A stretch of 25,422 bases of DNA, taken from the UHGV virus genome UHGV-0247665. One strand, written 5' to 3'. Source of the DNA: a virus. A program made the position numbers and the translations under genes. Below are positions 2,977 to 23,880 of this stretch, in pieces. The number at the start of each line of letters is the position of its first letter. Position 1 is the first letter of the stretch. Below the pieces are notes generated by a model. It did no database searches. It had not been told where the DNA came from and was given only the letters and a program-made list of their open reading frames with translations.

Positions 2977-3093
2977 GAAAGTTGATTTGTAACATTTTAG
3001 TTTGTAGTTACCGTGATGGTTTTGCTGCAGAAAGTTAACTAGTCAAAATCACACCGTATGTAAGTCACGTCTGTTCCCGTATGGGAGGATGAT

Positions 3094-7041: not shown

Positions 7042-7046
7042 TTAAT

Positions 7047-8849: not shown

Positions 8850-11359
8850 TGCGGAATATCTCCGGAGAATCTCTGACGCTTCTGTGTCAGATTAAGAACA
8901 ACGGGAGAACCATCATCTTTCAGCAGATAACCAGTACCAAGTTTCACCAGGTACTGACTATCGCCGTAACTTTGCAAACCATACTGACCAGGCGGTGTTT
9001 TTATCCCGGAGCCGACAACTTGTTCATTCCAAGCCTGATTAACCTGCTTATCGAATTGCTCTGCAGACATTCCCCACGGCAAAAGGACATTCCCCATTCC
9101 GTTATAGTCATGCACGCCACCTGTAGCTACGTTAACAGCCTGTTTCCAGACATCATTGTCAATTTCGCCTGATACCACGCCTTTTTTCGCCATCACACCA
9201 GCGTAATAATCCTTTGCGATCTCGTATGCCATTGATGCGCCCTGAGCGTCACCAGCAAATGCATCCTTCACCATGTCAGAAAACTCAAGGCGAAGATCAG
9301 CATCTTTAGGCATCGGAATACCTTTCGCATCATCAGTACCTTTACGAGCCGCCGCGCCAGCAAGAATTGTCTGCGCAGCGGTTTCAGGAGACACGGAAAC
9401 ATCCGGATTAAACCAGTTTTTTTCTGCCAAAATACCACCAGGCTTATCCATCAGTATCCCGGCAACGGCAGCAGATGGAGCGTTGGCACTGATCTGCTGT
9501 AGTGCTGACATATACACCTGCCCACCACCAGTGCTCTGCCTGATGGTATCGAGATATGCTGCCTGTTGGGAAACTGGAGCATCACGAAAGAAAACACCGA
9601 TCTGATTGGCCTCGTCTTTGGAAAAGAACGTCAGTGGAGTGCCATATGACTTAGCAAGGTCACTGACCTGAGCGGCACGCAAGGCAACGCTCTGTCCAAA
9701 GTTATCCTTATTGCTCATGTCGATAGGCTTTGCCTGTCCGGAGGCAAGAGAGAACTGCACAGGATCCGACTGCCGCTGCTTTATCACCTGATTTGCAGCC
9801 GAAACAACGTTGTCATAAAGAGTTGCGCGTGCCGCATACCCCTCCCCTGTATCACCAGTATCCGGGCGTAATTGCTCAACATATGCTGTAATGCTGCTTG
9901 TCGGCATGTTGCGGAAAGAGCCTATATACTGTCCGGCGATCTGCGTATTCTTAAACTCGGTATATCGCAGGTTTCCTTCTCTGACTCCATAAGCTGCAAT
10001 AAAATCATCCTCACCAGGTGGGTTAGGAAATTCAATGCCACGCATATACGCAGCCGTCGCATCGCGAACCCGGCTGTCGAGCATCGTTTTATATTCAGCC
10101 TGCTGTTGTCTGGCTAGTGCATCAGTCTGTCGCAACACGCTGGCCTGATCTGATTCACTTAAAGCATCGAACCAGGCTACACCGGTATAACGTTTATTTT
10201 TTGTCGGTAGCTGAGAAAGCCCCAGCGCAGCACTAACACCTGCAGTTAACTGCTGATCACTGTATGGCTGGCTACCGTTTTCATGATGGATAATGGCTGC
10301 ACAAAGCGCCTTCAGGGTATCAGGATTTGATGCATCGAGAGGCTCATCAGCAGAAACGCCAAGTTGTTCGCACACTGCTTTGATATACGACATAGTGTCA
10401 TTTTTATCAGTAGGCGGTGCCCAGCGATTAATTATCTCGCTGACGGTATCAATACCCTGCCGCTGATACGACATCAGGTTCCGCCCTAATGCACGAATAC
10501 CGTGTTCAGGGGTTTCGAATTTGGCAAAGCGACCATCATCACCAGTCTGCCCAACCCACGGATTAGTTTTGCTGTATTCAAGATTGCCGGGGTTATTGTT
10601 GCGTATACCGCGGGTACGATCGGAAGAGCCACTATCTGCTACAGCACGGCGAGAACCAGCAGCAGTATCGCTTAACTCGCCGTTTTGCTGTCTTACCTGA
10701 AGATAGTTTGCTCCAATAGCATTTTGAGCAGTTGCTTTTGCTGTTGCTTCTTTAAACTCGATTTTCTTGGCCTGGATTTGCTCGTCACTCCAGCCATGTG
10801 CAATGCCGTAATCCTCAATTTGCTGGAAAGTTTGCTTATTAGCCAATACGTATGCGGCGTTGTCGCCATACAATGCTGCGGCATTTTTACCATTGTTCAG
10901 CAGCGTAGCCTGAAACTGGCCTTCTTCGTAGGCATTTATTTGCCCTATCTCGTGCCGCCCGGCCTGCGTAGTGAACTGAATGCGCTGCTGCTGCGCCTGC
11001 TGCATGAAAGCATTACGAGCCTGTTCATCCGGCAGCGACATAGCCAGTTGTTCGACCTGAGCATCAAACTGCTGCGTATACTCCTGACCTTTTCCAATAG
11101 CATTTTTCCCTTTCAGGTTAAGCAAACCTGTTTCAGGATTATTCAGCAGATCGCTGCTTATCTGGCTTAAGCTAAGAGAAGCATCCTGAGCCATAGCAAC
11201 ATTCGCACGCTGTTTTGCCTGCGCAATAATACCTGCATATTGCTCTGCAACATCGCCAAGTACATCACCGACATTTGGTGTCTGAAACGATGAGAATCCC
11301 TGCGTCGAAATCCCTCTGCTCTGAACCTGACGGCCCGATGTTGTTGGTACAACTGGCAT
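8846..11359 (-). CDS. Internal virion protein (837 aa) with a conserved internal block (GIRNNNPGNLEYSKTNPW...)
   Basis: ORF track. Position in the core-protein block; the conserved-looking block at about aa 251-310 (about nt 10430-10609) has no function I can assign. Confidence 0.75.
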   Translation of the reverse strand: MPVVPTTSGRQVQSRGISTQGFSSFQTPNVGDVLGDVAEQYAGIIAQAKQRANVAMAQDASLSLSQISSDLLNNPETGLLNLKGKNAIGKGQEYTQQFDAQVEQLAMSLPDEQARNAFMQQAQQQRIQFTTQAGRHEIGQINAYEEGQFQATLLNNGKNAAALYGDNAAYVLANKQTFQQIEDYGIAHGWSDEQIQAKKIEFKEATAKATAQNAIGANYLQVRQQNGELSDTAAGSRRAVADSGSSDRTRGIRNNNPGNLEYSKTNPWVGQTGDDGRFAKFETPEHGIRALGRNLMSYQRQGIDTVSEIINRWAPPTDKNDTMSYIKAVCEQLGVSADEPLDASNPDTLKALCAAIIHHENGSQPYSDQQLTAGVSAALGLSQLPTKNKRYTGVAWFDALSESDQASVLRQTDALARQQQAEYKTMLDSRVRDATAAYMRGIEFPNPPGEDDFIAAYGVREGNLRYTEFKNTQIAGQYIGSFRNMPTSSITAYVEQLRPDTGDTGEGYAARATLYDNVVSAANQVIKQRQSDPVQFSLASGQAKPIDMSNKDNFGQSVALRAAQVSDLAKSYGTPLTFFSKDEANQIGVFFRDAPVSQQAAYLDTIRQSTGGGQVYMSALQQISANAPSAAVAGILMDKPGGILAEKNWFNPDVSVSPETAAQTILAGAAARKGTDDAKGIPMPKDADLRLEFSDMVKDAFAGDAQGASMAYEIAKDYYAGVMAKKGVVSGEIDNDVWKQAVNVATGGVHDYNGMGNVLLPWGMSAEQFDKQVNQAWNEQVVGSGIKTPPGQYGLQSYGDSQYLVKLGTGYLLKDDGSPVVLNLTQKRQRFSGDIPQ

Positions 11360-11371
11360 CTTATTATCCCC

Positions 11372-11911
11372 TTATCGACCGGTTGGAGTGCCAACAGCAG
11401 CAGAAATCGGCGCAGCCTTCTGAGAGAACGGGCTCCACGTTCCGCCGCCCATCTGGTATGCACCGTATGCTTTTAGTGGTGCCGTTAACAAAGTGCTGGT
11501 CATCGATGATTTAGCAGCCGACTGAGCAGCAGCCCCCTGTGCCTGAGCATTCATTCCCTGAACCTGATACCCATATGCCTCACGCTGAGCATTATTCACT
11601 GTCGTTAACGCATCAAGAGTGCCGAACTGAGCATTATCCGCAAAAACGTCAAGAGCTGTTCCGCTACTTAATTCCGCACCGGTAGCCCCCATAGTGGCCG
11701 CCGCAGTGCCTGAGCGTTGACGCATTTCACGACGACGCTGATCCGCTTCAATATTCCCACGATTGATTGAATCCTGTGCCTGAGCTTCAGCAATTTCAGC
11801 ATTCCGATCAGCTATGGCTGACTGGTATTTTGCCTGCTTGCTCTGGCTGTACATTGACGCGGCTGTGGATGCCACTGTGACGGCAACCAAAGCGATGGCT
11901 GGGTTACACAT
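11372..11911 (-). CDS. Small internal virion protein (179 aa) with N-terminal transmembrane helix
   Basis: ORF track. N-terminal hydrophobic segment AIALVAVTVASTAASMY followed by a Gln/Ala-rich region. Lies between the nozzle and the large core proteins. Confidence 0.65.
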   Translation of the reverse strand: MCNPAIALVAVTVASTAASMYSQSKQAKYQSAIADRNAEIAEAQAQDSINRGNIEADQRRREMRQRSGTAAATMGATGAELSSGTALDVFADNAQFGTLDALTTVNNAQREAYGYQVQGMNAQAQGAAAQSAAKSSMTSTLLTAPLKAYGAYQMGGGTWSPFSQKAAPISAAVGTPTGR

Positions 11912-12375
11912 TATTTTCTCTCCATGTGAAATCTGTGGAAATTAAGACCAAGAGCACCATAAGGCGCGGCTTCTTCAAGCCTGAATCCAAGCCAGTGCAG
12001 CCATGCTTTGGCAACATGGTTTCGCTCGTCGACGTAGTTTTCCAGGCGCGGATAAACTGCCAGCATCTGCTGCAATACAGGGCGGCAGTGGCGAAGAAAT
12101 GTCTTCTGATATTTTTCAATACGGCTGGTTCCTACCAGCCAGGGCGTACCATTGCCACCGATCATTGACGCCGGAGATACGCCAAACATGGTTACCAGTT
12201 CTCCGTTCGCAAATCCTGACCAGGCCATAGTCGCAGTACGCAGACCAACACGCAGCGCATCTTCGGTAGTCATCAGTGATACCGCATACAGTTCGTCAAT
12301 ATCAGCCTGACGAACATCCGGCAAAATCATCTGAAGATGCTCTTCGGTTGCGGGAATAATTTGAACATCGATCAT
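11911..12375 (-). CDS. Hypothetical virion/assembly protein (154 aa)
   Basis: ORF track. Start and stop overlap the adjacent genes, indicating translational coupling within the structural operon. Confidence 0.65.
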   Translation of the reverse strand: MIDVQIIPATEEHLQMILPDVRQADIDELYAVSLMTTEDALRVGLRTATMAWSGFANGELVTMFGVSPASMIGGNGTPWLVGTSRIEKYQKTFLRHCRPVLQQMLAVYPRLENYVDERNHVAKAWLHWLGFRLEEAAPYGALGLNFHRFHMERK

Positions 12376-14846
12376 CAGAACCCACCAACAGTAAGGCGAG
12401 GAATAACGGCAAGAACAGACAGCGGCAACGGATCAAGCTGACGGATTTTTACACGTCCGTTTTTTCCCCAGTTACTGTCCAGTTTCACTTCTACTTTTCC
12501 GGTAGCATCATCAACAGGATCATCGTAGAACTCGAATTCACGCTGTGGATATTCGTACCATTTACCGCCGGGCGTAGTCGCCCAGATGCCGCGACTGGCA
12601 TTCACAACCAGAGTAACGGAGGGGATCACCTGTTTTTTGTCCAGCAGCGTTTCCTGTCCGTTAATGTTGATATCCAGTGTTTCGAATTCAGCAGTTATTG
12701 GCAGGCCGATGTGCACTACAGCCCCCGGAGATTCCAGCGTGACGGCACCTCCGGAAACCACTTTCTGTGGTTCCACGTTCGCATCAGAGAGAATGTTTAC
12801 GGTCTGGCCTTCAAGATGAGACAGGCCTCCAAATGTCCGGCGCGCCATCTGCCAGTTCGTGGTGGCCACATTCCTGAGGGATGGCGGGACGTTCCTGTTA
12901 GCACGAACCACTACAGCGGTATTGCTGGTTACAGAAATAATGTCGCAACGTAATTCTTTTGACACCTCATCGCCAGTATCAGGATCAGTTCCGGTATAAG
13001 GGAACTGTAGTTGCGCGCCGACATCACTACTGGTGAAGTACGCACCACCAGAAACACTGATTGTATATTCCGCGCGGTAATCCCATTCGCCAGAACCACC
13101 AGTGATGATCATCGTTCTGTCAGACGTATTTCTTCCATCATAGCTAAGGCCAGAATCAACAAAGAAAGCATCTTCATCGCTGGTAAATAAACGGCTGGAC
13201 AGTCGCTCGATGTATCTCACTGTTTGCCCGTTAACGGTTCGGTTAACGACGAAATACACCGCATCTTCATTGCCTTCGCTGATACTGCATGTGCTTTCAT
13301 ATTTTCCGGTACTGGATTGTGGTGCCCATGCAAAAACCTGCTGATCACGCAAATAGGTCATCACCAGTAATTTACCGTCATCACGGATGCAGAAGGCGCT
13401 GGAGTAAGGGACTATTGAGAAGCACCAGTCAACAATGCTGTGCTTCTGAAAAAGATGATTGGCAAGGATAGTAAGGTCGTTCCCCTGATAGCCGTCAACA
13501 TCGAATGAGTAGGCCAGATCACGGACAACACTGCCTTTCTCCTGGACGAACAGAGCAATATTCGCCACGGCAATTGGTGGGACATTGCTCGAGCCATTTG
13601 ATCCCTGAGAGCTGAATGCAAATGATGATGGGGTAAGCACTTTGTTCTGGTCGCCAGTGATGACGTACTCACCTCCGGAAGTCAGCGCCACCAGCGAACC
13701 AACATCAATCAGGTGACGGATCTCATTAACCTGACGCCCGGCATAGGTGTAGATAATTCTGTCGTCATCCTGCGTAGGATTGCTTTTGCCAAAATCCTTA
13801 TAATCCCCAGTACGGCTGGCCCAGATAGTCTGAGGGAACGCAGTCGATGCGGCGAAGTAAAGACGCTGTTGATAATAAACAACAGTGCCAGGATAACCAT
13901 TAACACTGTTCCAGGCATATTTAGCCCATTTATAGCTGGCATTATCCTCGCCAACGACCTGCGAAGGGATATAGGAAATCACCTCGGCAGTTGCAGTAGT
14001 GCCGTTTACAGCAGTGATACGGGTAATGCCAAAACCACTGTGCAGATACTCCCACTCAATGCCAGTATCATCATCACCGGATCCGCCCCAGCCATCCCAT
14101 GATGTGCCTTCTGTATGCGAAGGGCGCAAAGTACCTGTTTTGCCTGCTGTAACGGCGCGATAGTAGTTACTGTCTGCACGGCGAATATCGCCAATCGACG
14201 TACTCTTACTGGTTTCCCATACCGGCACAGAATCCACTGCAGGCTGTTCCAGATAGAACAATTTGCCTACCTGCTCCGCGCCAAAAATAGAGGCGCTTGC
14301 CGTTAACGTAATTGTCCCGGTGCTGGCGCTGGCATAAACCGTCACTGACTCGTCAATATTGATATCTTCAAATGGCCCGTTCTTCGTTACCACATCAACC
14401 AGTTGCCAGTTGTCATGCGCATAGCGGCGCAACTCTTTCGGCGGGTATGCCGGATGAACCAGCGTAAGCACGTCTGCGCTTTGCGTGAATTTAATTCGGA
14501 ACAGATCGGTTTCAGTATATGGCGTGGAAATTTCATAAATAACATTGCTGCTGTTCAGCACCAACGCACCATCTTTGATAACGCGCATATACTGGTGTCC
14601 GAACTCCAGAGCATAAGTCTGAACCGTCGAGAACTGGAACGGGATCAGGCGGCATTTCCGATTTGGGTATTTGGCGGCACCGACAAAACGCGTACCAGGT
14701 CGATTCTCAACTCCGCCATACTGCCGCACGATAAAGTTATCGCACTTGCGCAATGCCACCTGGTACTTCGCCATGTCGATACGACCGTACAACGACGGTC
14801 CAATCTCACCACCGGCAAAGCTGGGCTGGATCCAACTGATAGCCAT
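12375..14846 (-). CDS. Tail tubular protein B / nozzle (T7 gp12-like, 823 aa)
   Basis: ORF track. About 800 aa, immediately downstream of a gp11-like gene. Assigned by size, order and overall resemblance to T7 gp12; not verified by search. Confidence 0.65.
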   Translation of the reverse strand: MAISWIQPSFAGGEIGPSLYGRIDMAKYQVALRKCDNFIVRQYGGVENRPGTRFVGAAKYPNRKCRLIPFQFSTVQTYALEFGHQYMRVIKDGALVLNSSNVIYEISTPYTETDLFRIKFTQSADVLTLVHPAYPPKELRRYAHDNWQLVDVVTKNGPFEDINIDESVTVYASASTGTITLTASASIFGAEQVGKLFYLEQPAVDSVPVWETSKSTSIGDIRRADSNYYRAVTAGKTGTLRPSHTEGTSWDGWGGSGDDDTGIEWEYLHSGFGITRITAVNGTTATAEVISYIPSQVVGEDNASYKWAKYAWNSVNGYPGTVVYYQQRLYFAASTAFPQTIWASRTGDYKDFGKSNPTQDDDRIIYTYAGRQVNEIRHLIDVGSLVALTSGGEYVITGDQNKVLTPSSFAFSSQGSNGSSNVPPIAVANIALFVQEKGSVVRDLAYSFDVDGYQGNDLTILANHLFQKHSIVDWCFSIVPYSSAFCIRDDGKLLVMTYLRDQQVFAWAPQSSTGKYESTCSISEGNEDAVYFVVNRTVNGQTVRYIERLSSRLFTSDEDAFFVDSGLSYDGRNTSDRTMIITGGSGEWDYRAEYTISVSGGAYFTSSDVGAQLQFPYTGTDPDTGDEVSKELRCDIISVTSNTAVVVRANRNVPPSLRNVATTNWQMARRTFGGLSHLEGQTVNILSDANVEPQKVVSGGAVTLESPGAVVHIGLPITAEFETLDININGQETLLDKKQVIPSVTLVVNASRGIWATTPGGKWYEYPQREFEFYDDPVDDATGKVEVKLDSNWGKNGRVKIRQLDPLPLSVLAVIPRLTVGGF

Positions 14847-15454
14847 CAGGACAACCTCGCAATGGTAAACTCGTCAACCGGTGGCAGTGGTTCCTGTGAT
14901 TCATTCTGGCTATGCGAGCCAGCACTAAGAATCACGCGATTGTACATATTGAGGGCAAACGTACCGAGGTCTGCATTCCCAGTCAGCGCCATGTTAATAG
15001 CTGCCGCAAGACGCCAGGCCAACGCCTCCATAAAAATGGCATCAAACATGTTCACATCTGAAACGCGAGAGACATACTTGAGCCATGCCTGCGGCTGGTC
15101 TGTGTAGATCAACTTTCCTGTTCCGTTGGTGTCTGCACCAACTTCGTACTGAACGCGCATTGCTGCTGTTGGATTGCGTACACCAGGAAGCATAATTTCA
15201 GTAATGCGCAGACAATCGGACGGGTACTGATACGCATATTCCCAGTCAGGCGGTGGATTGCTCGTATCTGCAAGCGCCACGCGTTTGGTAGCAAAGTTCC
15301 AGTCAAAATCAGAAAGCACAGCATCACGGCAGGCCTCAAAGTGCAGCGAACATTCCCCCGCTTCCTTGCTGGCTTCCGTCAGGCTGTTAATGCTGCGGCT
15401 ATTGCCAATATTGGACAGCGCACGATTACAGATCTCTACTACAGAGGCCATCAC
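14846..15454 (-). CDS. Tail tubular protein A / adaptor (T7 gp11-like, 202 aa)
   Basis: ORF track. About 200 aa. Its N-terminal VEICNRALSNIGNSRSINSLTEASKEAGEC pattern resembles the T7 gp11 N-terminus; position upstream of the nozzle gene. Confidence 0.6.
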   Translation of the reverse strand: MMASVVEICNRALSNIGNSRSINSLTEASKEAGECSLHFEACRDAVLSDFDWNFATKRVALADTSNPPPDWEYAYQYPSDCLRITEIMLPGVRNPTAAMRVQYEVGADTNGTGKLIYTDQPQAWLKYVSRVSDVNMFDAIFMEALAWRLAAAINMALTGNADLGTFALNMYNRVILSAGSHSQNESQEPLPPVDEFTIARLS

Positions 15455-15774
15455 TCACCCCCGTTACCGTAGAGGGTTTCAGCCGCTGATTTTTCTACAT
15501 CACCGGAAACAGGAGCGATTGCCATATCAGTGATCTGCAGATCGGCGCTGCGATTAACACCATCGTCAGTTTCTCTGGCAGACAGGCCTCGAATAACAGC
15601 CTTTGCAGTTATCATCACTTCTGTTCCGACGCCCTGAGGTTGCGCCTTCAGCTTATTCAATGTGTCGTTATTAAGAGTGATGCACAGCCCCCACGGGTAT
15701 TCATCGCGAGTTCTGGTTTCTCCGCTCTCATCCTGGTAGCTGTCAGTGCCGGTTTTGAGGTTTACGAGTTCCAT
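15451..15774 (-). CDS. Hypothetical small virion protein (about 108 aa)
   Basis: ORF track 15451..15780 (GTG start); I prefer the ATG at 15774, which is preceded by AGGAG with a 5-nt spacer. Confidence 0.55.
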   Translation of the reverse strand: MELVNLKTGTDSYQDESGETRTRDEYPWGLCITLNNDTLNKLKAQPQGVGTEVMITAKAVIRGLSARETDDGVNRSADLQITDMAIAPVSGDVEKSAAETLYGNGGE

Positions 15775-15824
15775 ATACACTCCTGCAATAAAGGGGCCGA
15801 AGCCCCTTGTCGGATTCGCGAGGC

Positions 15825-16160
15825 TTACACGCCCAGTTCTTTACGCTTATCTGCGATCTTCTCGCGGAGCGTTTCGGCTTTAGCGTTATGGTGTGGCTTC
15901 TCGTTAAAGAGCAATTCGTACTCTTCACGGAGCTTATCCAGTTCACCATCATCTGACACATCATTGATGATTTTGGTGCTGGTTGCTGCCATTGACACCT
16001 TTCCTGCAACTTTTGCTTTTGCCTGTCTGGCTGCATCGTTAACAGGTTCCAGTGCGCTACCAGGCTCACCTTCGTATTCGATTTCTGCCCCCTCCGGCCA
16101 CAGAGTGTTATGGATATGAGAGAGGCGCAGAACGAGGTATCTTGGTTTCTCACCTGACAT
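15825..16160 (-). CDS. Hypothetical small virion protein (about 111 aa)
   Basis: ORF track 15825..16169 (GTG start); I prefer the ATG at 16160, which is preceded by AAGGTGA with a 5-nt spacer directly after the upstream stop. Confidence 0.55.
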   Translation of the reverse strand: MSGEKPRYLVLRLSHIHNTLWPEGAEIEYEGEPGSALEPVNDAARQAKAKVAGKVSMAATSTKIINDVSDDGELDKLREEYELLFNEKPHHNAKAETLREKIADKRKELGV

Positions 16161-16170
16161 CGATATCACC

Positions 16171-16608
16171 TTAACCAGTTACTTTTGAGCGGATCGGATA
16201 CGGCGTATTGGCATCAACATCAAGACTGATACCAGCAGTGAATTCGCCAGCCGTTAGTGGGCCAGTTGCGACGGAGTAGTTAACACGCAGATATCGCTGA
16301 ACACCGGCAGGCACCTTTGCAGAAACAACTCGTTTACCTGCTGTCAGGGCGGTCTTTGCCAGTGCGCCACTATCATAAATAGTGGTCCATGAGCTGTTAT
16401 TTTCACTCGTCTGCAACTGGATGTTTACAGTTGCATCACCGCTTGCCGCGGCGGCTGTGTTAACCAGCGCCCAAAACTCAAGCTGGTAACCAACGCCGAT
16501 ATCACGACGTTTTCCGTCAATTGGACCGAGATCGATTACGTCAGTAGAAGCCGCGGTATCAGTTACCGCCTGTGCTTCGGAGAACATCAACAGTTTGTCG
16601 GTGATCAT
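16171..16608 (-). CDS. Putative capsid-associated (decoration-type) protein, 145 aa
   Basis: ORF track. First gene after the major capsid gene; SD GGAGA 6 nt before the ATG. Function inferred from position only. Confidence 0.5.
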   Translation of the reverse strand: MITDKLLMFSEAQAVTDTAASTDVIDLGPIDGKRRDIGVGYQLEFWALVNTAAAASGDATVNIQLQTSENNSSWTTIYDSGALAKTALTAGKRVVSAKVPAGVQRYLRVNYSVATGPLTAGEFTAGISLDVDANTPYPIRSKVTG

Positions 16609-16623
16609 CTTCTTTCTCCATTA

Positions 16624-16643
16624 GTGGGTCTGTTACGACCCAC
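16624..16643 (-). other. GC-rich 7-bp stem-loop directly after the major capsid gene stop
   Basis: GTGGGTC-tgttac-GACCCAC between the capsid stop (16660) and the next SD. No U-run follows. Confidence 0.4.
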
Positions 16644-16659
16644 AGGTTAATAACAGGCG

Positions 16660-17652
16660 TTACACCACGCGGGCTTCTGTTTCCAGAAGCGCATCAGTTT
16701 CACGGATTGGTACACCACGGAATGAAGTCCACCACTCGCCTTCTGTCTCTTTTACGCTGATAGCCAGAGATGTTTTCTCCAGAGACTGCAGATCAAGAGC
16801 CTGGCCTACAGTGCGGTTCATGTAGAACACCGGGCGGCCCATGCCACGGTTTGGAATGCGATGTAGTGCTTTAACCATCAACTTCGCAATATTTGCGGCA
16901 GAGGATGGTTCTGAAAGATTGCTGACATCGATGTTTGCAATGCGAACAACATAACGCCAGTCACGCAGAGCAAGTCCGTTATCCCATTTGTAATGGGTGC
17001 GATAGCCTTCGTACTTGCCGCCATTAGCATCTTCCAGTGTCACCTGGCCTTTATCTTCCATCTGGATGCCAGCCTTCTGCCCTTTCGGGAAGATGCCATG
17101 CACGGTGTTTTCGCCCCACACCACTAACCAGATTGAAGTGTTATCTGTACCCGTGCCACCAGCATCAATGATGTTCTGAGCATTACCCGCAGACAGGCTG
17201 GAATAGCGGGAGGACAGTCCCATAAACTGCTGAGGGTTAACGCTGGAATCACCATAAAACAGCGTCTGCGCCATCTGCTGATTCATCGCTTCAATAAATG
17301 CGCGGTCTTCAGACAGGCGGAATTCGGCGGTATTGCCGTTCAGATCAGCCAGTGACTTATCGACTTCCGCATAGGTTTCCAGCATGCCAACGGAATCGGT
17401 TACCTGCACTGTGGTTGATTTGCTTGGCTGTACGCCATAGTTCAGCAAACGCCAGGTAGCTGAAGGTAAACCAGAACGAATGGTGGTTCGGTGTCCGGTA
17501 GGAAGGTTCCCTTCGACAAAAGGCATATCCTGAAGGATCGGGTTAGTTTGACCGAGAAGCTCGATAATCTTATCGACTTTCCCGTTTGGATCGACGCGCT
17601 TACCCCAGTCAGCCAGCGTTAGCGCAGTTAAGCCTTTAACAGCCATTGTCAT
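16660..17652 (-). CDS. Major capsid protein (330 aa)
   Basis: ORF track. Placed directly after the scaffold gene, with the only strong SD of the region (GAGAGGAA). The true start may be the second ATG at 17646. Not verified by search. Confidence 0.7.
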   Translation of the reverse strand: MTMAVKGLTALTLADWGKRVDPNGKVDKIIELLGQTNPILQDMPFVEGNLPTGHRTTIRSGLPSATWRLLNYGVQPSKSTTVQVTDSVGMLETYAEVDKSLADLNGNTAEFRLSEDRAFIEAMNQQMAQTLFYGDSSVNPQQFMGLSSRYSSLSAGNAQNIIDAGGTGTDNTSIWLVVWGENTVHGIFPKGQKAGIQMEDKGQVTLEDANGGKYEGYRTHYKWDNGLALRDWRYVVRIANIDVSNLSEPSSAANIAKLMVKALHRIPNRGMGRPVFYMNRTVGQALDLQSLEKTSLAISVKETEGEWWTSFRGVPIRETDALLETEARVV

Positions 17653-17660
17653 TTCCTCTC

Positions 17661-18362
17661 TTATTTGCCATAGAGCACTTCGGCCGCACTACGCTGGCCT
17701 TCATTACCACCGGTGACCATGCCATCTTCAGACATCGCCTTTCCGATTTTCACGAACGTTTTGACCAGATCAGGGTGATTACCCAGCCCGGTGGTGTTCA
17801 GATATTCTTTGAGTTCAGGTGTCCCGAACTGGTCAAGCGCACGCTGTGCGGCGCTAAGGTTAGAAATCAACTTGTCGCCACCGATTTCTTTGTCGGCTTT
17901 TACATCCGCAGCCCACTGCTCGGTTGTTTTCTGCCAGGCTTCTGCCTGGCGCTGCTGAACACCTGCCAGAATCTTCGGATAAGCATCAACCAGCTTTTGC
18001 GCTTGCTCGTTGGTCAGGTTTAGTTCTCGCGCCACCGGCTCGAATTCCTTCAACGCTTCTGTATCCAGCTCTACGCCTTCGGCAGCCTGAAACTCGTACT
18101 TTTCAGGCGCACCCTCTGGTTTATCGCCGTCCTTTTTTTCATCCTGCTTATCGTTTTCAGGCTTTTTGTCATCAGCAGGTTTATCGCCATCAGCAACAGG
18201 TTGTGGCTTATCACCTTCCTGTTGTGATGGATCACCAACTGGAGCAGGGTTATCACCTGCAGGCGCTGACGGTTCTGACGCAGCCGGAGCTGCTCCACCA
18301 TCGACTGGTTGCTCATTGCAAAGACGGCGATACAGCAAACGCTCAAATAAATTCATGATCAC
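17661..18362 (-). CDS. Scaffolding protein (233 aa)
   Basis: ORF track. Highly acidic, Pro/Ala/Lys-rich low-complexity N-terminus with a helical C-terminal part; lies between portal and capsid genes. Confidence 0.65.
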   Translation of the reverse strand: MIMNLFERLLYRRLCNEQPVDGGAAPAASEPSAPAGDNPAPVGDPSQQEGDKPQPVADGDKPADDKKPENDKQDEKKDGDKPEGAPEKYEFQAAEGVELDTEALKEFEPVARELNLTNEQAQKLVDAYPKILAGVQQRQAEAWQKTTEQWAADVKADKEIGGDKLISNLSAAQRALDQFGTPELKEYLNTTGLGNHPDLVKTFVKIGKAMSEDGMVTGGNEGQRSAAEVLYGK

Positions 18363-18655
18363 TCCTGTTCACTGGCCTCTTTGGCCATCTTCAAATACTG
18401 TTCAGGGCAATGCGCCATAACGCGCTGAAACAGTTCCAGCGCCAGATTGCGTTGCCCCTCATTAAATGCCATTGCCATAGCATCCATCGGAGAGATAGCG
18501 GAAAACACCCGGCCTTTCTCCAGCACCGACCAGACAACGCGACGCCCCTGTTCACTGCTCATGACAAAGCAAATGTCATCAATTTCACGCTGTGCCATGT
18601 CACGTTGCTTACGGGCGTTTTCTTCTTTCAGTTGATCGTCTTCGTAATCTGTCAT
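18359..18655 (-). CDS. Hypothetical head-morphogenesis protein (98 aa)
   Basis: ORF track. 4-nt overlaps with both the portal stop and the scaffold start. Confidence 0.55.
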   Translation of the reverse strand: MTDYEDDQLKEENARKQRDMAQREIDDICFVMSSEQGRRVVWSVLEKGRVFSAISPMDAMAMAFNEGQRNLALELFQRVMAHCPEQYLKMAKEASEQE

Positions 18656-20331
18656 TGTGATTGCCCACCCTGACCACTAACTGCATTCGCCATAGCTGAC
18701 AAAACACTCGGATCCGAAGTTTTAGCTTCGCTTAGCGTCTTGGCACCCTGTGCCGCCGCCATCCCCATCGCCATCATTTGTTGCTGCTGTTGTTGCTGTG
18801 CCCGTTGCTGGCGAGCCTGCTCAACCTGTTCCTGCGGAACAATGACGGTTGGAGACACTCCGGACATATCAGCGAATGCATCGATCGCCTGATCAACGTT
18901 GAGTTTGTCGAGAGCTTCTGGTTTCGCTTGCGCAAGTTGACCAATGAAGTTGACCGTAGACGCCAGACTGGACAGGCCGATAGACTTCTGCGCCTGAGCC
19001 ATGACGGAAATGTATTCGACCTTCAGGGGCATACCTTCCATTGCGTCAGGCGGTGGCGGCAGCATGTTTTTACGCACCATCATCGAGAAAGCGCGGTCAA
19101 TGAGAGGATTAAGACATTCGTCGTTCAGACGCTCCAGAACCGGCCCCAACATCAGAAGTTTTTCTTCTTTCATTTCGATCACCGCTTCAACAGGCATCGA
19201 GCGGGTATTGATGTTCTGCAACATCATGAACAGATCGACAAAGTAGGCGCTGTTAATGATTTGACGGGTGTCCTGAATGTCTGCCACCAAATCTGCTGTA
19301 CTGGGGTTAACCAGATAAGCAGGCCTGAAGCCATCCTGACCAGTAATCTGATCGATATACGTGATGTCGCCAGGAAGAAGGGAGGCGCGCTGATTCTTGA
19401 GGGAAGTCGGAGCAACCATCGGCGGATTGGTGGCTTTATCAATCAACTGCGACTTGCGCTTCTGGAGAAGCTGCAATGCCTTAACAGGTCCAAGCGCCAG
19501 CATACCCGGGCATGATGATCCATAAACATCTTCGCCATTAACTTCCCAGCGCGGAGCCATAATTGGAAACTCATCAAATCCGGACTCACGCAACAACTTG
19601 TCGTTATCGCCACCAACCTCGTAATAAACCGATTTGAATGGCTTGTTCTTGCTATCCAGCTTCGATGTATCGCGGTCAATGTTCGGGTAAACCGAATGCA
19701 TCACGTCAATCCACTTCTCGTAGGTGCCGCTTTCCCACATGCTTTTTACGGATTCGCTGACGTTATTTAGCCCGAACTCCTGAACAAGCTGACGAACAGT
19801 CATAGAGAACTTGCGAAAACAGGTGTCCACACTGCCACGAGGTGAGTTAGCCAGGTAGTAACTGCCTATCGGGAATGGCATTGTGCGAATGATGTCCTCG
19901 TCATCCTCCAGCACCGCCATTGCACCAGTGCTGTATGTGCCGAGGCTTCCGTATAACTGCGGAAGAGACTGGTAGAGATTCGACTTATTGAACATATCGT
20001 TCATGCGGTTCTGCACCGCCTCGAGCCACAACTTAACAGGACCATAATCCATCATTTCAGGATCTGGCGTAGCCAGGCGAAACCACGGACGCGCAGGGCT
20101 TGTGATGCCTGACATCATGCCGCTGGCGAGAGTGCGCGCCGCCATAGTCCCGGTCGAATCAATAATGCGTGTATTGCGTCGATCGTTACGGTTGACCTCA
20201 GAAGTCAGAAAGCGGGAACCACGCGGGTTGATGTAATCACTCAACTCGCGCCAGTGCGGCTCGAACGACTGACGCTCGCTTTCAAGTTGTGCGAACTGTT
20301 TGTTCAATCGCTCTTTAGTTGTTTCCGCCAT
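18652..20331 (-). CDS. Portal (head-tail connector) protein, 559 aa
   Basis: ORF track. About 560 aa, downstream of terminase. Its C-terminal Gln/Ala/Met-rich tail (QQQQQQQMMAMGMAAAQGA) resembles the T7 gp8-type portal C-terminus. Confidence 0.85.
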   Translation of the reverse strand: MAETTKERLNKQFAQLESERQSFEPHWRELSDYINPRGSRFLTSEVNRNDRRNTRIIDSTGTMAARTLASGMMSGITSPARPWFRLATPDPEMMDYGPVKLWLEAVQNRMNDMFNKSNLYQSLPQLYGSLGTYSTGAMAVLEDDEDIIRTMPFPIGSYYLANSPRGSVDTCFRKFSMTVRQLVQEFGLNNVSESVKSMWESGTYEKWIDVMHSVYPNIDRDTSKLDSKNKPFKSVYYEVGGDNDKLLRESGFDEFPIMAPRWEVNGEDVYGSSCPGMLALGPVKALQLLQKRKSQLIDKATNPPMVAPTSLKNQRASLLPGDITYIDQITGQDGFRPAYLVNPSTADLVADIQDTRQIINSAYFVDLFMMLQNINTRSMPVEAVIEMKEEKLLMLGPVLERLNDECLNPLIDRAFSMMVRKNMLPPPPDAMEGMPLKVEYISVMAQAQKSIGLSSLASTVNFIGQLAQAKPEALDKLNVDQAIDAFADMSGVSPTVIVPQEQVEQARQQRAQQQQQQQMMAMGMAAAQGAKTLSEAKTSDPSVLSAMANAVSGQGGQSQ

Positions 20332-20345
20332 TTCAATGACTCCGG

Positions 20346-20552
20346 TTACTGACCAAGCAGCGTTTTACCGCTGGTATTAGCGGTTGATGTGTCGCCCTGA
20401 GAACCGGTAAGCAGCGTAGAACTACGACCAGCAGCAGCGCGACGGCGACGTGTTTCTTCGTCGCGGGCATCAACAACGGCGGCATCCTGCTCCTGTGGTG
20501 CTGCCTGAACTTCTGGTGTTGCAGGCACTGACGGTGAGCTACCCATGCACAT
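20346..20552 (-). CDS. Small hypothetical protein (68 aa), low complexity
   Basis: ORF track. Its start context CGGAGTCATTGAT-ATG is near-identical to the portal context CGGAGTCATTGAA-ATG. The overlapping 79-aa alternative frame is rejected. Confidence 0.5.
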   Translation of the reverse strand: MCMGSSPSVPATPEVQAAPQEQDAAVVDARDEETRRRRAAAGRSSTLLTGSQGDTSTANTSGKTLLGQ

Positions 20553-20642
20553 ATCAATGACTCCGTACGCAATTAAATTATCACCAATTTAACCACATAT
20601 GATTTATTTATCGTAGATAGTTGACATTTAACGCATGAATTA

Positions 20643-20657
20643 TTACCTTTCAGGTAA
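20643..20657. promoter_or_regulatory. TTACC-N5-GGTAA palindromic motif copy (ATTACC-tttca-GGTAAG)
   Basis: Intergenic, between the 68-aa/portal gene start and the tRNA; a TTGACA hexamer lies at 20621-20626. Confidence 0.5.
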
Positions 20658-20979
20658 GTAAAGTGTTCATTCCGGTTATTAACCTGACTGGCTTATCGTT
20701 AAATTGAACAGGTGGAGTGAGCTTTTATTTTGAGCAGTACGGCGTATGGCACATGCGCCGATAGCGGTCTGGATACGTTTAAGGGGCACCCTCCCTTGCT
20801 CGGGCAAACGAACCAGGTAGCCGGAATGTGCAAGTCGAGCGGTTTTATTCCGCGCACGGGGATTCACCATCCCGGCGATTCGGTGTGACGCCTCGGAAGA
20901 GACGAGGGTACAACGATGAGAGCATTTATGGAGCCGCGACAAAGTGTGGCGCCTTAACAGGCTAAGTGCTCTCAGCGTT

Positions 20980-21056
20980 GTGGCATTAGCTCAGTTGGAC
21001 AGAGCAACCGCCTTCTAAGCGGTTGGTCGCAGGTTCGAATCCTGCATGCCACGCCA
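20980..21056 (+). tRNA. tRNA-Arg (anticodon UCU), 77 nt with encoded CCA
   Basis: Folded by hand: 7-bp acceptor stem GTGGCAT/ATGCCAC, D-arm, anticodon stem ACCGC/GCGGT with loop CTTCTAA (U33, anticodon TCT, A37), T-arm GCAGG-TTCGAAT-CCTGC, discriminator G, CCA. Close to the E. coli argU-type tRNA. Confidence 0.92.
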
Positions 21057-21099
21057 GAATCACGCCTAAGGACCGTGATGCCAGAAGTTCCAGGTGCTT

Positions 21100-21141
21100 G
21101 GCGGTGATGGTTTCCCTTGAAGGACTATCACCGCCCTTTTT
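21100..21141 (+). terminator. Intrinsic terminator downstream of the tRNA (9-bp stem GGCGGTGAT/ATCACCGCC, 18-nt loop, CTTTTT)
   Basis: Inverted repeat at 21100-21108 and 21127-21135 followed by a T-run. Confidence 0.5.
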
Positions 21142-21219
21142 ACAGCAGGACGCCATTGCGATGACTTCATGCTGTAAACCCGTACAGCCACGGAAGGCAT
21201 AACTCATTGCTTCCAGTTC

Positions 21220-21243
21220 GCCCGGTTCGCCGGGCATTTTTTT
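21220..21243 (+). terminator. Terminator-like hairpin (GCCCGG-TTCG-CCGGGC then ATTTTTTT) immediately upstream of the 118-aa gene SD
   Basis: 6-bp GC stem with a UUCG tetraloop and a 7-T run; the downstream SD AAGGTGA begins at 21244. Confidence 0.45.
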
Positions 21244-21254
21244 AAGGTGAGATT

Positions 21255-21611
21255 ATGAACGACCAGCAAATCGAAAAAGAAATCGTTGAGAAAGGCAAAA
21301 CCGCTCCGCGAGTTACGCCTCAATATATCGAAAGCATCATTCTTGAAGAGCATTTCTTTACTGCTTATGACGGCATTCGTGCTGCCAATATGGGCGTTGG
21401 CGATACGTGGACAGCGCATAAATCTACAGACCTCCTTACTTTCTGCGTACTGGTGCTGAAGAATGGCTTCACCGTCACCGGAGAGAGTGCCTGTGCAAGC
21501 CCGGAAAACTTTGATGCAGAAATTGGTCGGAAAATTGCCCGGCAGAATGCTGTAAACAAAATCTGGATGCTTGAAGGTTACTTGCTGAAGCAGAAGTTAA
21601 GCGAGCAATAA
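21255..21611 (+). CDS. Small conserved phage protein (118 aa); tentatively N4 gp49 / Sf6 gp66-like family
   Basis: ORF track; SD AAGGTGA. The family assignment is recalled from the motif FCVLVLKNGFTVTGESACASPENFDAEIGRKIA and is unverified. Confidence 0.65.
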   Translation: MNDQQIEKEIVEKGKTAPRVTPQYIESIILEEHFFTAYDGIRAANMGVGDTWTAHKSTDLLTFCVLVLKNGFTVTGESACASPENFDAEIGRKIARQNAVNKIWMLEGYLLKQKLSEQ

Positions 21612-21615
21612 CACC

Positions 21616-21627
21616 GTGACATGTCAC
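21616..21627. repeat. 12-bp perfect palindrome GTGACATGTCAC (copy 2)
   Basis: Exact match; 5 nt after the stop of the 118-aa gene and adjacent to the terminator hairpin. Confidence 0.6.
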
Positions 21628-21631
21628 AAAC

Positions 21632-21659
21632 AGCCAGCTCATAGGCTGGCTTTGTTTTA
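21632..21659 (+). terminator. Intrinsic terminator (AGCCAGC-tcatag-GCTGGCT then TTGTTTTA) between convergent genes
   Basis: 7-bp stem with a T-rich tail on the plus strand; lies between the 118-aa gene stop and the large terminase stop. Confidence 0.55.
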
Positions 21660-21701
21660 TCCTCATCAGAGGATATCAACGACATTATCCCCACCAGCGG
21701 A

Positions 21702-23177
21702 TTAAGCATACGGGTCATAATCTGTGATGGCCTTGCCTTGCTGGTTCTGCTGCCCAGGAATTCGCAGACGCTTCGACACAGGGAAAGCAAACGTCAGCAA
21801 TAGCGCATCGCCTTTACCAGGAGAACGCCCAAGCCGCTCCTTGATATCTTCCTTCGGTTCGATAACGATTTTACCGTCCACGCGAACTTTGTACTCTGCC
21901 GCCGACAGGTCGTCCGCTGTTTCCTGGTCATCCAGCATGCCGCCCAGCCTCAGCCATGTCTTGCATGAGTTGAACATCTCCCCACGCTTGTTAAGCATCT
22001 GCGGGTCAGTAGACGCGCCACCGAACGGAACAAGTTGCCATGTACGCCCCCAACCATCACCGATTGACTTCAAACCGGTTCCGTAACCGAAGTCGATGAA
22101 CACCGCGTCAGCCTGGTACTGGTCTTCAAAGTCAGCGATACGCTTCGCCATAATCAGATCGTCAGTGGTCTTGTTGCCGGTCCACAGCACCTTACTGTGC
22201 AGCCCCTGCCGCAGATATATCACCGCGTCATCAACACCGGAGTATGCCGGGTCAACGCCGATTATCACCGGAGCATGTGCAACCTGCGCAGCGGTGACCA
22301 CCCGTTTCATTGCCTCGTCAGTAAGTCCGGTAGGGATAAACTGCAATTCAGATGCATCCGGGAATATGCCGCGCACACGGATTTTAACGAAGTCGCTATC
22401 TTCCCCGTAGTCATCAACCCATTTCTGCAACTGCTGTTTGTTAGTGCCTTCCACCGTCCGGCTGTCAATCTGCGCAGTTTTCCAGCGGTGTTTGTATTTG
22501 CGGAAACATTCGCGAAAACGCCCGGTATTACGTGTAGGGTTTCCGAACGCCACCCAGATAATCTCAGTGTCTTCGTCCGTAAGCGCACCCTCAGCAACTT
22601 CCCACACCAGATCCGCAATGTTCGACGCTTCATCGAATACCACGATGATGCGTTTGCGCTCGTTGTGTAGTCCGGCGAATGCCTCAGTGTTGTGCTCAGA
22701 CCAGGGGATTGCGTCAGCTCGCCACCGCTTGTCGTGCCCAGGATCATTGCTGTACATCGCAGTAGCGGTACAGGTAAACCAGTCTTTCGTGATAGCAAGG
22801 TTCGACCACTTGATAATTTCCGGCCAGGTCTTCGTTCGTAGCTGGTTGTCGGTGTTGGCGGTCACCACGACCTTACAATCCTCGCAAGTGGACATGCCCC
22901 AGTTGATCAGCATTGAGATGAATGCGGATTTACCAATACCGTGACCCGAAGCACGTGCCAGCATAAGCGGCTGATAGCGCGTCTCTGGATTCTGCAGGTG
23001 ATCACGTATCTCTCGGAACGCATCAGCCTGCCACTGACGTGGGCCGGTAGCATGTGCCAGTTCAGTCCCCTCTTCCCCCCACGGGAACGCATAGAGGGCA
23101 TAGCCAAGCGGATCGTGAGTGAACCCTGCAATATCCTCGATCAACTGCTCTTCAGGAGATAACGCTGTATCTGTCAC
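21702..23177 (-). CDS. Terminase large subunit (491 aa)
   Basis: ORF track. Walker A-like GHGIGKSAF, Walker B-like IIVVFDEAS, and C-terminal nuclease-type motifs (GVDPAYSG, FIDFGYG). 4-nt overlap with the small-subunit gene. Confidence 0.9.
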   Translation of the reverse strand: MTDTALSPEEQLIEDIAGFTHDPLGYALYAFPWGEEGTELAHATGPRQWQADAFREIRDHLQNPETRYQPLMLARASGHGIGKSAFISMLINWGMSTCEDCKVVVTANTDNQLRTKTWPEIIKWSNLAITKDWFTCTATAMYSNDPGHDKRWRADAIPWSEHNTEAFAGLHNERKRIIVVFDEASNIADLVWEVAEGALTDEDTEIIWVAFGNPTRNTGRFRECFRKYKHRWKTAQIDSRTVEGTNKQQLQKWVDDYGEDSDFVKIRVRGIFPDASELQFIPTGLTDEAMKRVVTAAQVAHAPVIIGVDPAYSGVDDAVIYLRQGLHSKVLWTGNKTTDDLIMAKRIADFEDQYQADAVFIDFGYGTGLKSIGDGWGRTWQLVPFGGASTDPQMLNKRGEMFNSCKTWLRLGGMLDDQETADDLSAAEYKVRVDGKIVIEPKEDIKERLGRSPGKGDALLLTFAFPVSKRLRIPGQQNQQGKAITDYDPYA

Positions 23178-23770
23178 TGATTACCATCCTGACGTTCTTT
23201 GAGTCGCTTCCTGGCTGCTGCTATGCGATCAGCAATTGTCACATTCACATTAACATCCAGACGTTCTTTGAACGCGTTGACATCAACATGCTTACCAATC
23301 AGCTCAAGGTTCTTCACCTTGTCAGGCCATTTAATTTTTTTGAGGATTGTCTCTATCGAATCCTCGTTCATGTTCATGATGGTCGATGACAGATCAAAGC
23401 CACTAAGCGTAGTGCGCCAGATTTTCGGCCACTCACGGATTGGTTTAAGGCTCCCATCGTCGTTGAGGATGTCGATCACGTCCATCTGGTCGATCTGCAC
23501 CAGGCGCATGAGAACGTAATCAGCACTGACGCGCATTCGTTTGTTGCGCTCCTCCATCAACTCGGCAATCCGTTTTTGAATGCGTTCATCGCGCATCATG
23601 ACACTGGCTTTAACTGCCGCTGTATTTGGGGAGAATCCTGCGTTAATCGCTGCCTGAGTCTGGTTTTCAGGCGTTTTGATGTATGACTGGCAATAAGCCT
23701 CCTGCATTGCTGTTAGTGGCTTAAATTGCGTTGATTTGCGTTTATAGGTTTTAGGTTCAGCAGGCATCAT
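23174..23770 (-). CDS. Terminase small subunit (about 199 aa from ATG 23770)
   Basis: ORF track 23174..23848 uses a TTG start. I prefer the tandem ATGs at 23770 and 23767, preceded by GGTGG, because a terminator hairpin and motif cluster occupy 23771-23848. The LTAMQEAYCQSYIKTPENQTQAAINAGFSPNTAAVKA region resembles small-terminase (Terminase_2-type) N-terminal domains. Confidence 0.75.
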   Translation of the reverse strand: MMPAEPKTYKRKSTQFKPLTAMQEAYCQSYIKTPENQTQAAINAGFSPNTAAVKASVMMRDERIQKRIAELMEERNKRMRVSADYVLMRLVQIDQMDVIDILNDDGSLKPIREWPKIWRTTLSGFDLSSTIMNMNEDSIETILKKIKWPDKVKNLELIGKHVDVNAFKERLDVNVNVTIADRIAAARKRLKERQDGNQ

Positions 23771-23787
23771 AACCACCGTGGTAATAG

Positions 23788-23802
23788 TTACCGTTTTGGT
23801 AA
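23788..23802. promoter_or_regulatory. TTACC-N5-GGTAA palindromic motif copy within a cluster of GGTAATAGT repeats
   Basis: GGTAATAGTTACC-gtttt-GGTAATAGTACC lies 20-40 nt upstream of the small terminase ATG. Confidence 0.5.
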
Positions 23803-23813
23803 TAGTACCATGC

Positions 23814-23839
23814 AAAATAAAGCCGCCATAGTTGGCGGC
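23814..23839 (-). terminator. Intrinsic terminator on the minus strand between the 115-aa gene and the terminase operon (GCCGCCA-n4-TGGCGGC then UUUAUUUU)
   Basis: 7-bp GC stem at 23822-23839; the minus-strand U-run corresponds to plus-strand A-run 23814-23821. Confidence 0.5.
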
Positions 23840-23880
23840 AGTATTCAAAACCCATCAAATTCATCATGCATAATCTACTC

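Follow-up and report, generated by a model that had tools for sequence, protein, structure and literature searches.

The viral genome UHGV-0247665, analysed here as one stretch of 25,422 nucleotides (nt; hereafter the window), carries a plus-strand cassette comprising a transfer RNA (tRNA) gene and, directly ahead of it, approximately 240 nt (20740-20980) that form a discrete, conserved and pseudoknotted non-coding RNA module. The module consists of a core of ~168 nt (20740-20907, plus strand) and a 70-nt hairpin domain. When the intergenic region was compared by BLAST, positions 20573-21254 were found to be 98.8% identical to phiV10, and the source is therefore an epsilon15-like podophage of the genus Uetakevirus. 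A first-pass annotation had placed the cassette inside the late operon and antisense to it, and the gene coordinates agree: it is flanked on one side by gp3 (20346-20552, minus strand) and the portal gene (18652-20331, minus strand; PF12236, E = 1.8e-187), and on the other by an open reading frame (ORF) of 491 amino acids (21702-23177, minus strand), annotated as the large terminase in phiV10 and epsilon15, and by the small terminase gene (23174-23848, minus strand; PF03592). The G+C content is 57.9% in 20740-20979, compared to 49.2% for the whole window and 30.7% in 20573-20699. The region 20700-21060 folded more stably than shuffled sequences (z = -3.2), and since the opposite strand scored equally (z = -3.25), fold stability is uninformative as to which strand is functional.

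The tRNA gene (20980-21056, plus strand) was identified as tRNA-Arg(UCU) both by ARAGORN (anticodon TCT), as the single tRNA in the whole window, and by Rfam (RF00005, 73.3 bits against a gathering score of 29), in agreement with the earlier prediction. It is complete, with 77 nt including an encoded CCA and a full cloverleaf. The closest tRNA-Arg of the E. coli core genome shares 85.9% identity over nt 7-77, exact or near-exact copies are found in 339 E. coli records in a prophage-like pattern, and many phage genomes carry the gene at this same internal site. Two origins had been considered, a copy of host argU and a fragment at an attachment-site junction; as the gene is complete and its best core-genome match reaches only 85.9%, it is neither. 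Set beside the argU-type tRNA-Arg(UCU) of lambdoid and Shiga toxin (Stx) prophages and tRNA-Ile2 of P1, it shows the same complete cloverleaf, here with a UCU anticodon and an encoded CCA, and nothing about it is unusual, its 86% identity to the nearest host tRNA-Arg included; it is an ordinary representative of a known kind of phage-borne rare-codon tRNA.

The proposal that this tRNA supplements rare-codon decoding was found to be plausible, but the benefit is modest. In the 19 long ORFs of the window, AGA and AGG are used 4.4 and 2.4 times per 1000 codons, about twice the E. coli average. AGA is absent from the head, portal and terminase genes (15454-23848), and 25 of the 29 AGA codons are located in the tail genes (4567-14846), with the rest in a few small ORFs; the codon is thus restricted to tail and injection genes plus those small ORFs.

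Fold of the RNA module

The core folds into five helices and one pseudoknot, all on the plus strand, and a covariance model matched the window at 20735-20913 with 147 bits (E = 2.9e-40). The P1 hairpin (20740-20760), supported by covariation, is followed by P2, in which 20768-20772 pair with 20813-20817 and close a variable hairpin. A conserved single strand seen in the alignment, the 19-mer GGUAGCCGGAAUGUGCAAG (20816-20834), leads to P4 (20834-20836 with 20874-20876) and P5 (20859-20862 with 20870-20873; loop UUCACCA). The pseudoknot joins CACC (20865-20868) to GGUG (20882-20885), as indicated by covariation, and P6 (20891-20895 with 20903-20907) carries the loop GAAGAGA; P4, P5 and P6 are backed by pair counts.

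Two alignments were used, A2 with 31 diverse copies aligned in MAFFT, and A3 with 101 covariance-model matches in 79 distinct rows, the latter being fitted to the model and drawn from a sampling that leaned on the 19-mer. In A3, standard pairs occupied 97.1% of cells versus 87.2% in shuffles, both-sided (compensatory) changes occurred at 13 of the 30 pairs, and none of 500 shuffles matched the observed covariation; when the 3′ partners were slid by 1-3 columns, pairing fell to 30-49%. A2 agrees independently, and for the two alignments overall pairing amounts to 96-97% against 30-51% when slid, with 0/500 shuffles. At the pseudoknot pair, A3 has C-G in 55 rows and A-U in 17, with no mismatch, and the lower P1 stem has G-C in 53 rows and A-U in 25. 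The abundance of G-U pairs assigns the RNA to the plus strand, which also carries the tRNA. The 19-mer itself varies in divergent members found by BLAST, namely those of vB_EcoS-733R5 (115 bits) and Kp4871-1 (109 bits).

Three other pairings were considered. A helix "P3" proposed by RNAalifold (GCCGGA with UNCGGU) was rejected: G-A mismatches number 26-35, and the GGU that it would use is part of the covarying pseudoknot. RNAalifold on A2 also predicted that GCACAU at the top of P1 pairs with AUGUGC of the conserved strand; both sides are near-invariant, and the P1 hairpin is favoured because its lower stem covaries. Finally, pairing of the UCACCA loop with a downstream UGGUGA tail was discarded, as the tail stays constant when the loop changes.

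Two minus-strand ORFs lie antisense to these RNAs, one of 87 amino acids (20679-20942) opposite the structured RNA and one of 83 amino acids (20986-21237) opposite the tRNA; the phiV10 record annotates the latter as the hypothetical protein PhiV10p04 and leaves the tRNA unannotated. Both ORFs are almost certainly spurious. The chance that the region is protein-coding, or alternatively a remnant of a host tRNA or attachment site, is practically nil: the ORFs do exist, and one is annotated, but the 87-amino-acid ORF, the one tested, drew a blank in Pfam, homologues differ by hairpin insertions whose lengths are not multiples of three, substitutions keep the base pairs, including G-U pairs on the plus strand, and the 83-amino-acid ORF runs antisense to a tRNA that is itself complete and shares only 86% identity with host genes.

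The 3′ domain, present in 105 of 142 copies of the module, is built on a basal helix of ~16 base pairs on the plus strand, in which CAACGAUGAGAGCAUU (20911-20926) pairs with AGUGCUCUCAGCGUUG (20965-20980) and closes a variable three-way insert. The two strands co-vary, for example as GAU-GAGAGCA/UGCUCUC-AGC versus AGGU-AAGAGCA/UGCUCUU-UCC, and cognate duplexes have a mean energy of -21.2 kcal/mol compared to -15.4 kcal/mol for non-cognate ones, i.e. are ~6 kcal/mol better. The final G of the helix (20980) is also nucleotide 1 of the tRNA, and so cleavage by RNase P, in its established role, would free the module with a 3′ end at 20979, as we infer. Around the 3′ strand of the basal helix (20965-20988 in the window, and in homologues) the sequence reads UGCUCUC or UGCUCUUU, and the GU-rich GUUGUGGUG comes next.

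The core and the 3′ hairpin look separable, and the slot that they occupy looks like a recombination hotspot, because its contents differ in SfV and LLS. In the pL slot of LLS (L164 32060-32160, minus strand) the 3′ hairpin module stands alone, as CACAAC-GUG-AAAGCGCAC...GUGCGCUU-CCA-GUUGUGG, and in SfV (L163 3940-4660) the core is replaced by orf33, encoding a 98-amino-acid protein (phrog_3195, unknown function), with just "...AGCGTTGTGGTGAATG" of the 3′ edge of the module left. Conversely, P1-like and PAT1-like copies consist of the core without the basal helix. This bears on the unlikely proposal that the module is a cis-acting processing or stability element, a 5′ leader that would shield untranslated early RNA and tRNAs from Rho and RNases, or direct cleavage by RNase III or RNase P, and leave RNA polymerase unaffected. 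Its location in untranslated early leaders beside tRNAs and the long basal helix, resembling double-stranded RNA, would suit such a role, and the annotators of epsilon15 proposed an RNase III site in the intergenic region. However, besides the copies that do without the basal helix, an element of this type needs neither conserved single strands of up to 19 nt nor a pseudoknot common to four enterobacterial host genera.

Distribution and genomic contexts

Outside the phiV10-like phages, BLAST returned matches of 70-83% identity that are confined to window positions ~20739-20983, with unrelated flanks. The carriers include lambdoids (cdtI, mEp460, 2H10, Ayreon, and Stx2c and Stx2a prophages), P1-like phages (P1, P7, D6, SJ46 and RCS47), as well as Klebsiella and Enterobacter phages and one phage with Stenotrophomonas as its listed host. 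The module recurs in three unrelated lineages of temperate phages, i.e. lambdoid, P1-like and epsilon15-like. It is found in 1840 of 5426 complete E. coli genomes (about one third), in 1920 chromosomal and 554 plasmid places, and the adjoining tRNA-Arg is the sole annotated feature under the match in the E. coli rows listed. The 19-mer, in DNA GGTAGCCGGAATGTGCAAG (20816-20834) and near-universal in the copies, occurs at 24 loci in species-representative genomes, and a scan for it in IMG/VR gave at least 120 contigs.

Two of the loci, those of the Stenotrophomonas phage vB_SmeS_BUCT708 (L010) and of a 1.7-kb contig from a Bacillota metagenome-assembled genome (L032), reach 150 bits and resemble the copies of Klebsiella and other enterobacteria; their listed hosts may reflect contamination or misbinning and not a wider host range. 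A locus in Oscillospiraceae (L020) was rejected as a chance match to the 19-mer (14 bits) and is not a family member.

The module appears to be undescribed. No family of Rfam 15 matched it at the gathering score, nor did one when the filters were relaxed and E values of up to 10 allowed, and when 20500-21300 were searched the tRNA was the only genuine hit, the others being an antisense-tRNA artefact and terminator-like matches at E of at least 1. A RyhB-like match at 21189-21243 (18 bits, E = 1.4) was dismissed, as it reflects the hairpin and U-run of the terminator-like element T2 described below. The conserved strings, searched as DNA and RNA in the searchable literature, gave only chance matches in papers on C. 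elegans, and keyword searches of the same literature found no description of the element. In phage records almost nothing is annotated under the match; the few exceptions are hypothetical proteins, antisense wherever checked (mEp460, and PhiV10p04 over the tRNA). The module is thus essentially unannotated in the GenBank phage, RefSeq E. coli and PLSDB records examined.

The first-pass annotation had read the sequence ahead of the tRNA as the leader of a long structured precursor. A long structured RNA is indeed present, but it represents an autonomous RNA family rather than a feature of tRNA biogenesis. Among 155 copies, tRNA-Arg(TCT) follows directly 3′ in 29, tRNA-Ile2 (CAT) lies ~15 nt 5′ in 19, all of them P1-like, and no tRNA is found within 400-500 nt in 107; every neighbouring tRNA shares the strand of the module. 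The module does not depend on a tRNA. It is accordingly hard to credit that it is a passive, functionless leader of a tRNA precursor, even though in the window, as in 28 further copies, it runs directly into the tRNA with one nucleotide shared: the majority of copies are tRNA-less and the P1-like ones follow a different tRNA, the covariation means selection on the fold, and 70-83% identity is kept across phages with unrelated flanks.

By their neighbouring ORFs, 57 copies are in lambdoid, 44 in epsilon15-like, 15-19 in P1-like and ~38 in other or cut-off contexts. The neighbours form backbone-specific clusters, and no conserved gene for a partner protein was found among them. Wherever annotation or strand evidence allows a call, the module is co-oriented with an early unit under annotated or inferred repressor control, usually near its start.

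In the window, the TTGACA that had been noted far ahead of the tRNA is read directly at 20621-20626 (plus strand) and forms, with TACCTT at 20644-20649, a putative early promoter with a 17-nt spacer in which the key TAnnnT positions are kept. The arrangement is conserved in epsilon15 and falls below the threshold of a consensus scan; a scan with the sigma-70 consensus over 20300-21800 of the plus strand gave zero promoters. The operator-like palindrome ATTACCTTTCAGGTAAG (20642-20658), identified by sequence match, overlaps the -10 element and start site, and its epsilon15 counterpart, ATTACCTTTTAGGTAAT, is annotated as a repressor binding site. Palindromes of the form ATTACCT-N3-AGGTAAT occur seven times in the window versus 0.69 expected, with copies in the immunity region at 1547-1563, 1927-1943 and 2961-2977, and so link the promoter of the tRNA cassette to that region.

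In the lambdoids (57/155 copies), the module follows a co-oriented S24/helix-turn-helix repressor gene at a median distance of 157 nt. In cdtI, the cI stop codon (2882) is followed by an intrinsic terminator (2894-2911), a near-consensus promoter TTGACA-16-CATAAT (2921-2948) and the module, which begins at 3001, ~45 nt past the promoter; a strong and a weaker terminator-like hairpin and the first early-left gene come after it. Two copies of the palindrome ATGTAYC-N5-GRTACAT overlap the promoter and the other three all lie between cro and cI (five in total versus 0.6 expected), which identifies the promoter as pL/oL. The mEp460 and Stx2a_WGPS2 records annotate no N gene, and the eight early-left proteins tested from cdtI, WGPS2, 733R5 and the Stenotrophomonas phage matched no N-antiterminator PHROG. 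In P1 and P7 the module is located between trnI and ban, inside the ban operon annotated as controlled by a C1 operator, and in the Klebsiella phage SopranoGao a terminator and a promoter-like TTGCAA-18-TATATT, the latter read by eye in the alignment, precede it. The sole two-copy locus (L052; 3994-4157 and 4801-4962, minus strand, 114.5 and 149.9 bits) has both copies on the same strand, flanking an oppositely oriented SieB (PF14163) gene.

Downstream of the tRNA in the window, all on the plus strand, are T1, an intrinsic-terminator-like hairpin with a 14-bp stem followed by CTTTTT (21100-21145; -22 kcal/mol in the phiV10 copy), and T2, a terminator-like GCCCGG-TTCG-CCGGGC followed by T7 (21220-21245; conserved in epsilon15), which ends ~10 nt ahead of the ribosome-binding site of the next ORF. 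This ORF (21255-21611) encodes a 118-amino-acid member of the N4 gp49/Sf6 gp66 family (PF13876, E = 1.6e-34; phrog_322, unknown function), and a further terminator-like hairpin, T3 (21632-21661), annotated as a terminator in phiV10, closes the plus-strand cassette. As no promoter of its own was recognised, expression of the PF13876 ORF from the sole candidate promoter would need read-through of both T1 and T2.

The terminators raise the possibility, which we consider very unlikely, of a riboswitch-like aptamer that would sense a ligand and control them, bringing a metabolic signal into early transcription. The multi-helix junction, pseudoknot and near-invariant junction nucleotides are aptamer-like, but the core is separated from the nearest terminator by a whole tRNA or at least 170 nt, no terminator is near the P1 copy, no alternative pairing between core and terminator was seen, and no riboswitch family of Rfam matched at E up to 10.

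In the Klebsiella phage ST512-KPC3phi13.3, which is arranged alike, a DUF2829/Tad2-like ORF takes the place of the PF13876 ORF. The post-module ORF is annotated as DUF2829 in the Klebsiella phage record L008 (2011-2532), and several P1-like contigs (L068, L091, L097 and L128) encode a PF11195 DUF2829/Tad2-like ORF (E = 1.6e-9) where P1 and P7 have ban. Tad2-like PF11195 is a Thoeris anti-defence domain, and these neighbours suggest an early accessory or counter-defence role for the cassette.

Candidate functions and known counterparts

The putL site of HK022 is found just downstream of the repressor-controlled pL, and put RNAs are ~70 nt long with two stem-loops (PMC9378689). The module occupies the same slot, after a repressor-controlled pL and ahead of terminators, in lambdoids without a detected N, and is likewise a structured, protein-independent RNA of highly conserved sequence. 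In contrast, its core of ~168 nt has five helices and a pseudoknot, and it is also found in podophages and P1-like phages; its effect on RNA polymerase is putative. The covariance model gave no match on the nun-cI-cro region of HK022, and blastn-short returned only chance 8-10-mers there. Because of the missing model match, the lack of sequence similarity and the 2-3 times larger size, the module is not a member of the put family; put may be its nearest functional analogue, a likeness of function that we infer.

The nutL site of lambda occupies the same slot in the pL leader. The 5-bp P6 hairpin with its GAAGAGA loop recalls what we take to be the GAAGA of boxB, and UGCUCUU/UGCUCUC recalls the presumed boxA consensus; together with GUUGUGGUG, UGCUCUC or UGCUCUUU also resembles the boxA and boxC strings that we assume for rrn and lambda, the boxA-like part being base-paired. 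However, nutL needs N, which is neither annotated nor detected in the module-bearing lambdoids that were examined for it, and the boxA-like string is tied up in a helix that covaries; a lambda-type nut site was rejected on these grounds. GOLLD and ROOL are structured non-coding RNAs of phages and prophages, often tRNA-adjacent and of unknown function, but these are 500-800 nt long, occur mainly in Firmicutes and environmental sequences and are represented in Rfam, where the module matches no family. The C4 RNA of P1 and P7 and the CI RNA of P4 are small phage RNAs that RNase P cuts out of the leader transcripts of early or immunity regions; at ~80 nt, they regulate known targets by antisense pairing and have a fold unrelated to that of the module. 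The window also encodes a C4 antisense RNA (2074-2160, 79.5 bits in Rfam), directly preceded by an isrK RNA (1979-2055, 65.5 bits); the pair, which overlaps the start of a 279-amino-acid ORF (2056-2895), represents an RNA control region of the P1/P7 immI type within an epsilon15-like phage.

The function that we tentatively favour, while granting that it may well be wrong, is that of a cis-acting RNA which, like HK022 put, would modify RNA polymerase and enable read-through of the terminators that follow. The module and the tRNA would be co-transcribed from the candidate TTGACA-17-TACCTT promoter, RNase P would set the 3′ end of the module by cutting at G1 of the tRNA (20980), and the long basal helix might serve as an RNase III site. 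The folded nascent core would bind the RNA polymerase that made it and confer resistance to pausing and termination. In the window, the early transcript would then extend past both T1 and T2 and take in the PF13876 gene, which lacks a recognised promoter; in lambdoids it would pass the terminators of the pL leader into an early-left operon without a detected N, and in P1 transcription would proceed onward into ban. The tRNA would be a co-transcribed passenger, providing extra AGA decoding capacity.

Several observations weigh against this mechanism, for which only position speaks. SfV is without the core despite a cdtI-like cI, pL/oL and downstream terminator, and so is LLS, a lambdoid that has no N and whose yfdP/yfdQ early-left operon is preceded by several terminators in the leader. 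In epsilon15 (L003 1540-1650), a deletion extends from mid-P2 through the tRNA into T1, leaving P1, half of P2 and a remnant of 35.9 bits; the 5′ half of T1 is gone, and T2 and the ORF are kept. As SfV, LLS and epsilon15 lack it, the core is dispensable in close relatives. A putR-like copy in the right operon was found at no locus: the 16-kb early region of mEp460 has one match, and 99 of 100 loci have one match each, the exception (L052) having both copies on one strand. The P1 copy has no terminator within 600 nt downstream, and terminators are found downstream in 96 of 122 cases versus upstream in 99 of 122, i.e. with no enrichment, antisense controls included. The difference from the HK022 put region in sequence, model score and size counts on the same side.

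According to a serious, though on balance doubtful, rival view, the module is an "RNA moron", an accessory RNA of immediate-early expression that acts in trans. It would be excised by RNase P at the tRNA or by RNase III at the basal helix, and its target would be a conserved protein, RNA or small molecule of the host, for which it might serve as a decoy or sponge during host takeover or counter-defence. The patchy presence on near-identical backbones (phiV10/epsilon15 and cdtI/SfV, with LLS also lacking the core) would be expected of such an RNA, as would the flanking processing signals (a tRNA 3′ in 29 copies or 5′ in 19, and the ~16-bp duplex) and the very highly conserved single-stranded stretches with the pseudoknot. 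A strong terminator is often located downstream, as in a stand-alone small-RNA gene, and the neighbours are of accessory or anti-defence type (Tad2-like PF11195/DUF2829, PF13876, SieB and the TerB-like Tci). Presence/absence, processing signals and accessory neighbours fit a trans-acting RNA equally well. On the other hand, the module has no known partner and is accompanied by no conserved protein gene, the lambdoid copies are confined to the pL leader while other moron sites are empty, and an operon behind a strong pL terminator would still need a way through.

The carriers of the module include Stx2-converting prophages and O157 typing phages. To our knowledge, RNA-only processive antitermination in bacteria is represented by essentially two examples, HK022 put and the EAR element of Bacillus. 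The core could be the first representative of a further class of RNAs, unrelated to put in structure, which from the very start of early phage transcripts reprogram the RNA polymerase of the host or some other conserved part of its machinery; lambdoid, P1-like and epsilon15-like phages would share it through horizontal exchange. We make this suggestion with some reserve. Whether it acts in cis or in trans, the module goes unannotated in thousands of E. coli, Salmonella and Klebsiella genome records, several of which carry spurious ORFs over it; if trans-acting, it would represent an immediate-early phage RNA of wide occurrence that is directed at some host target.

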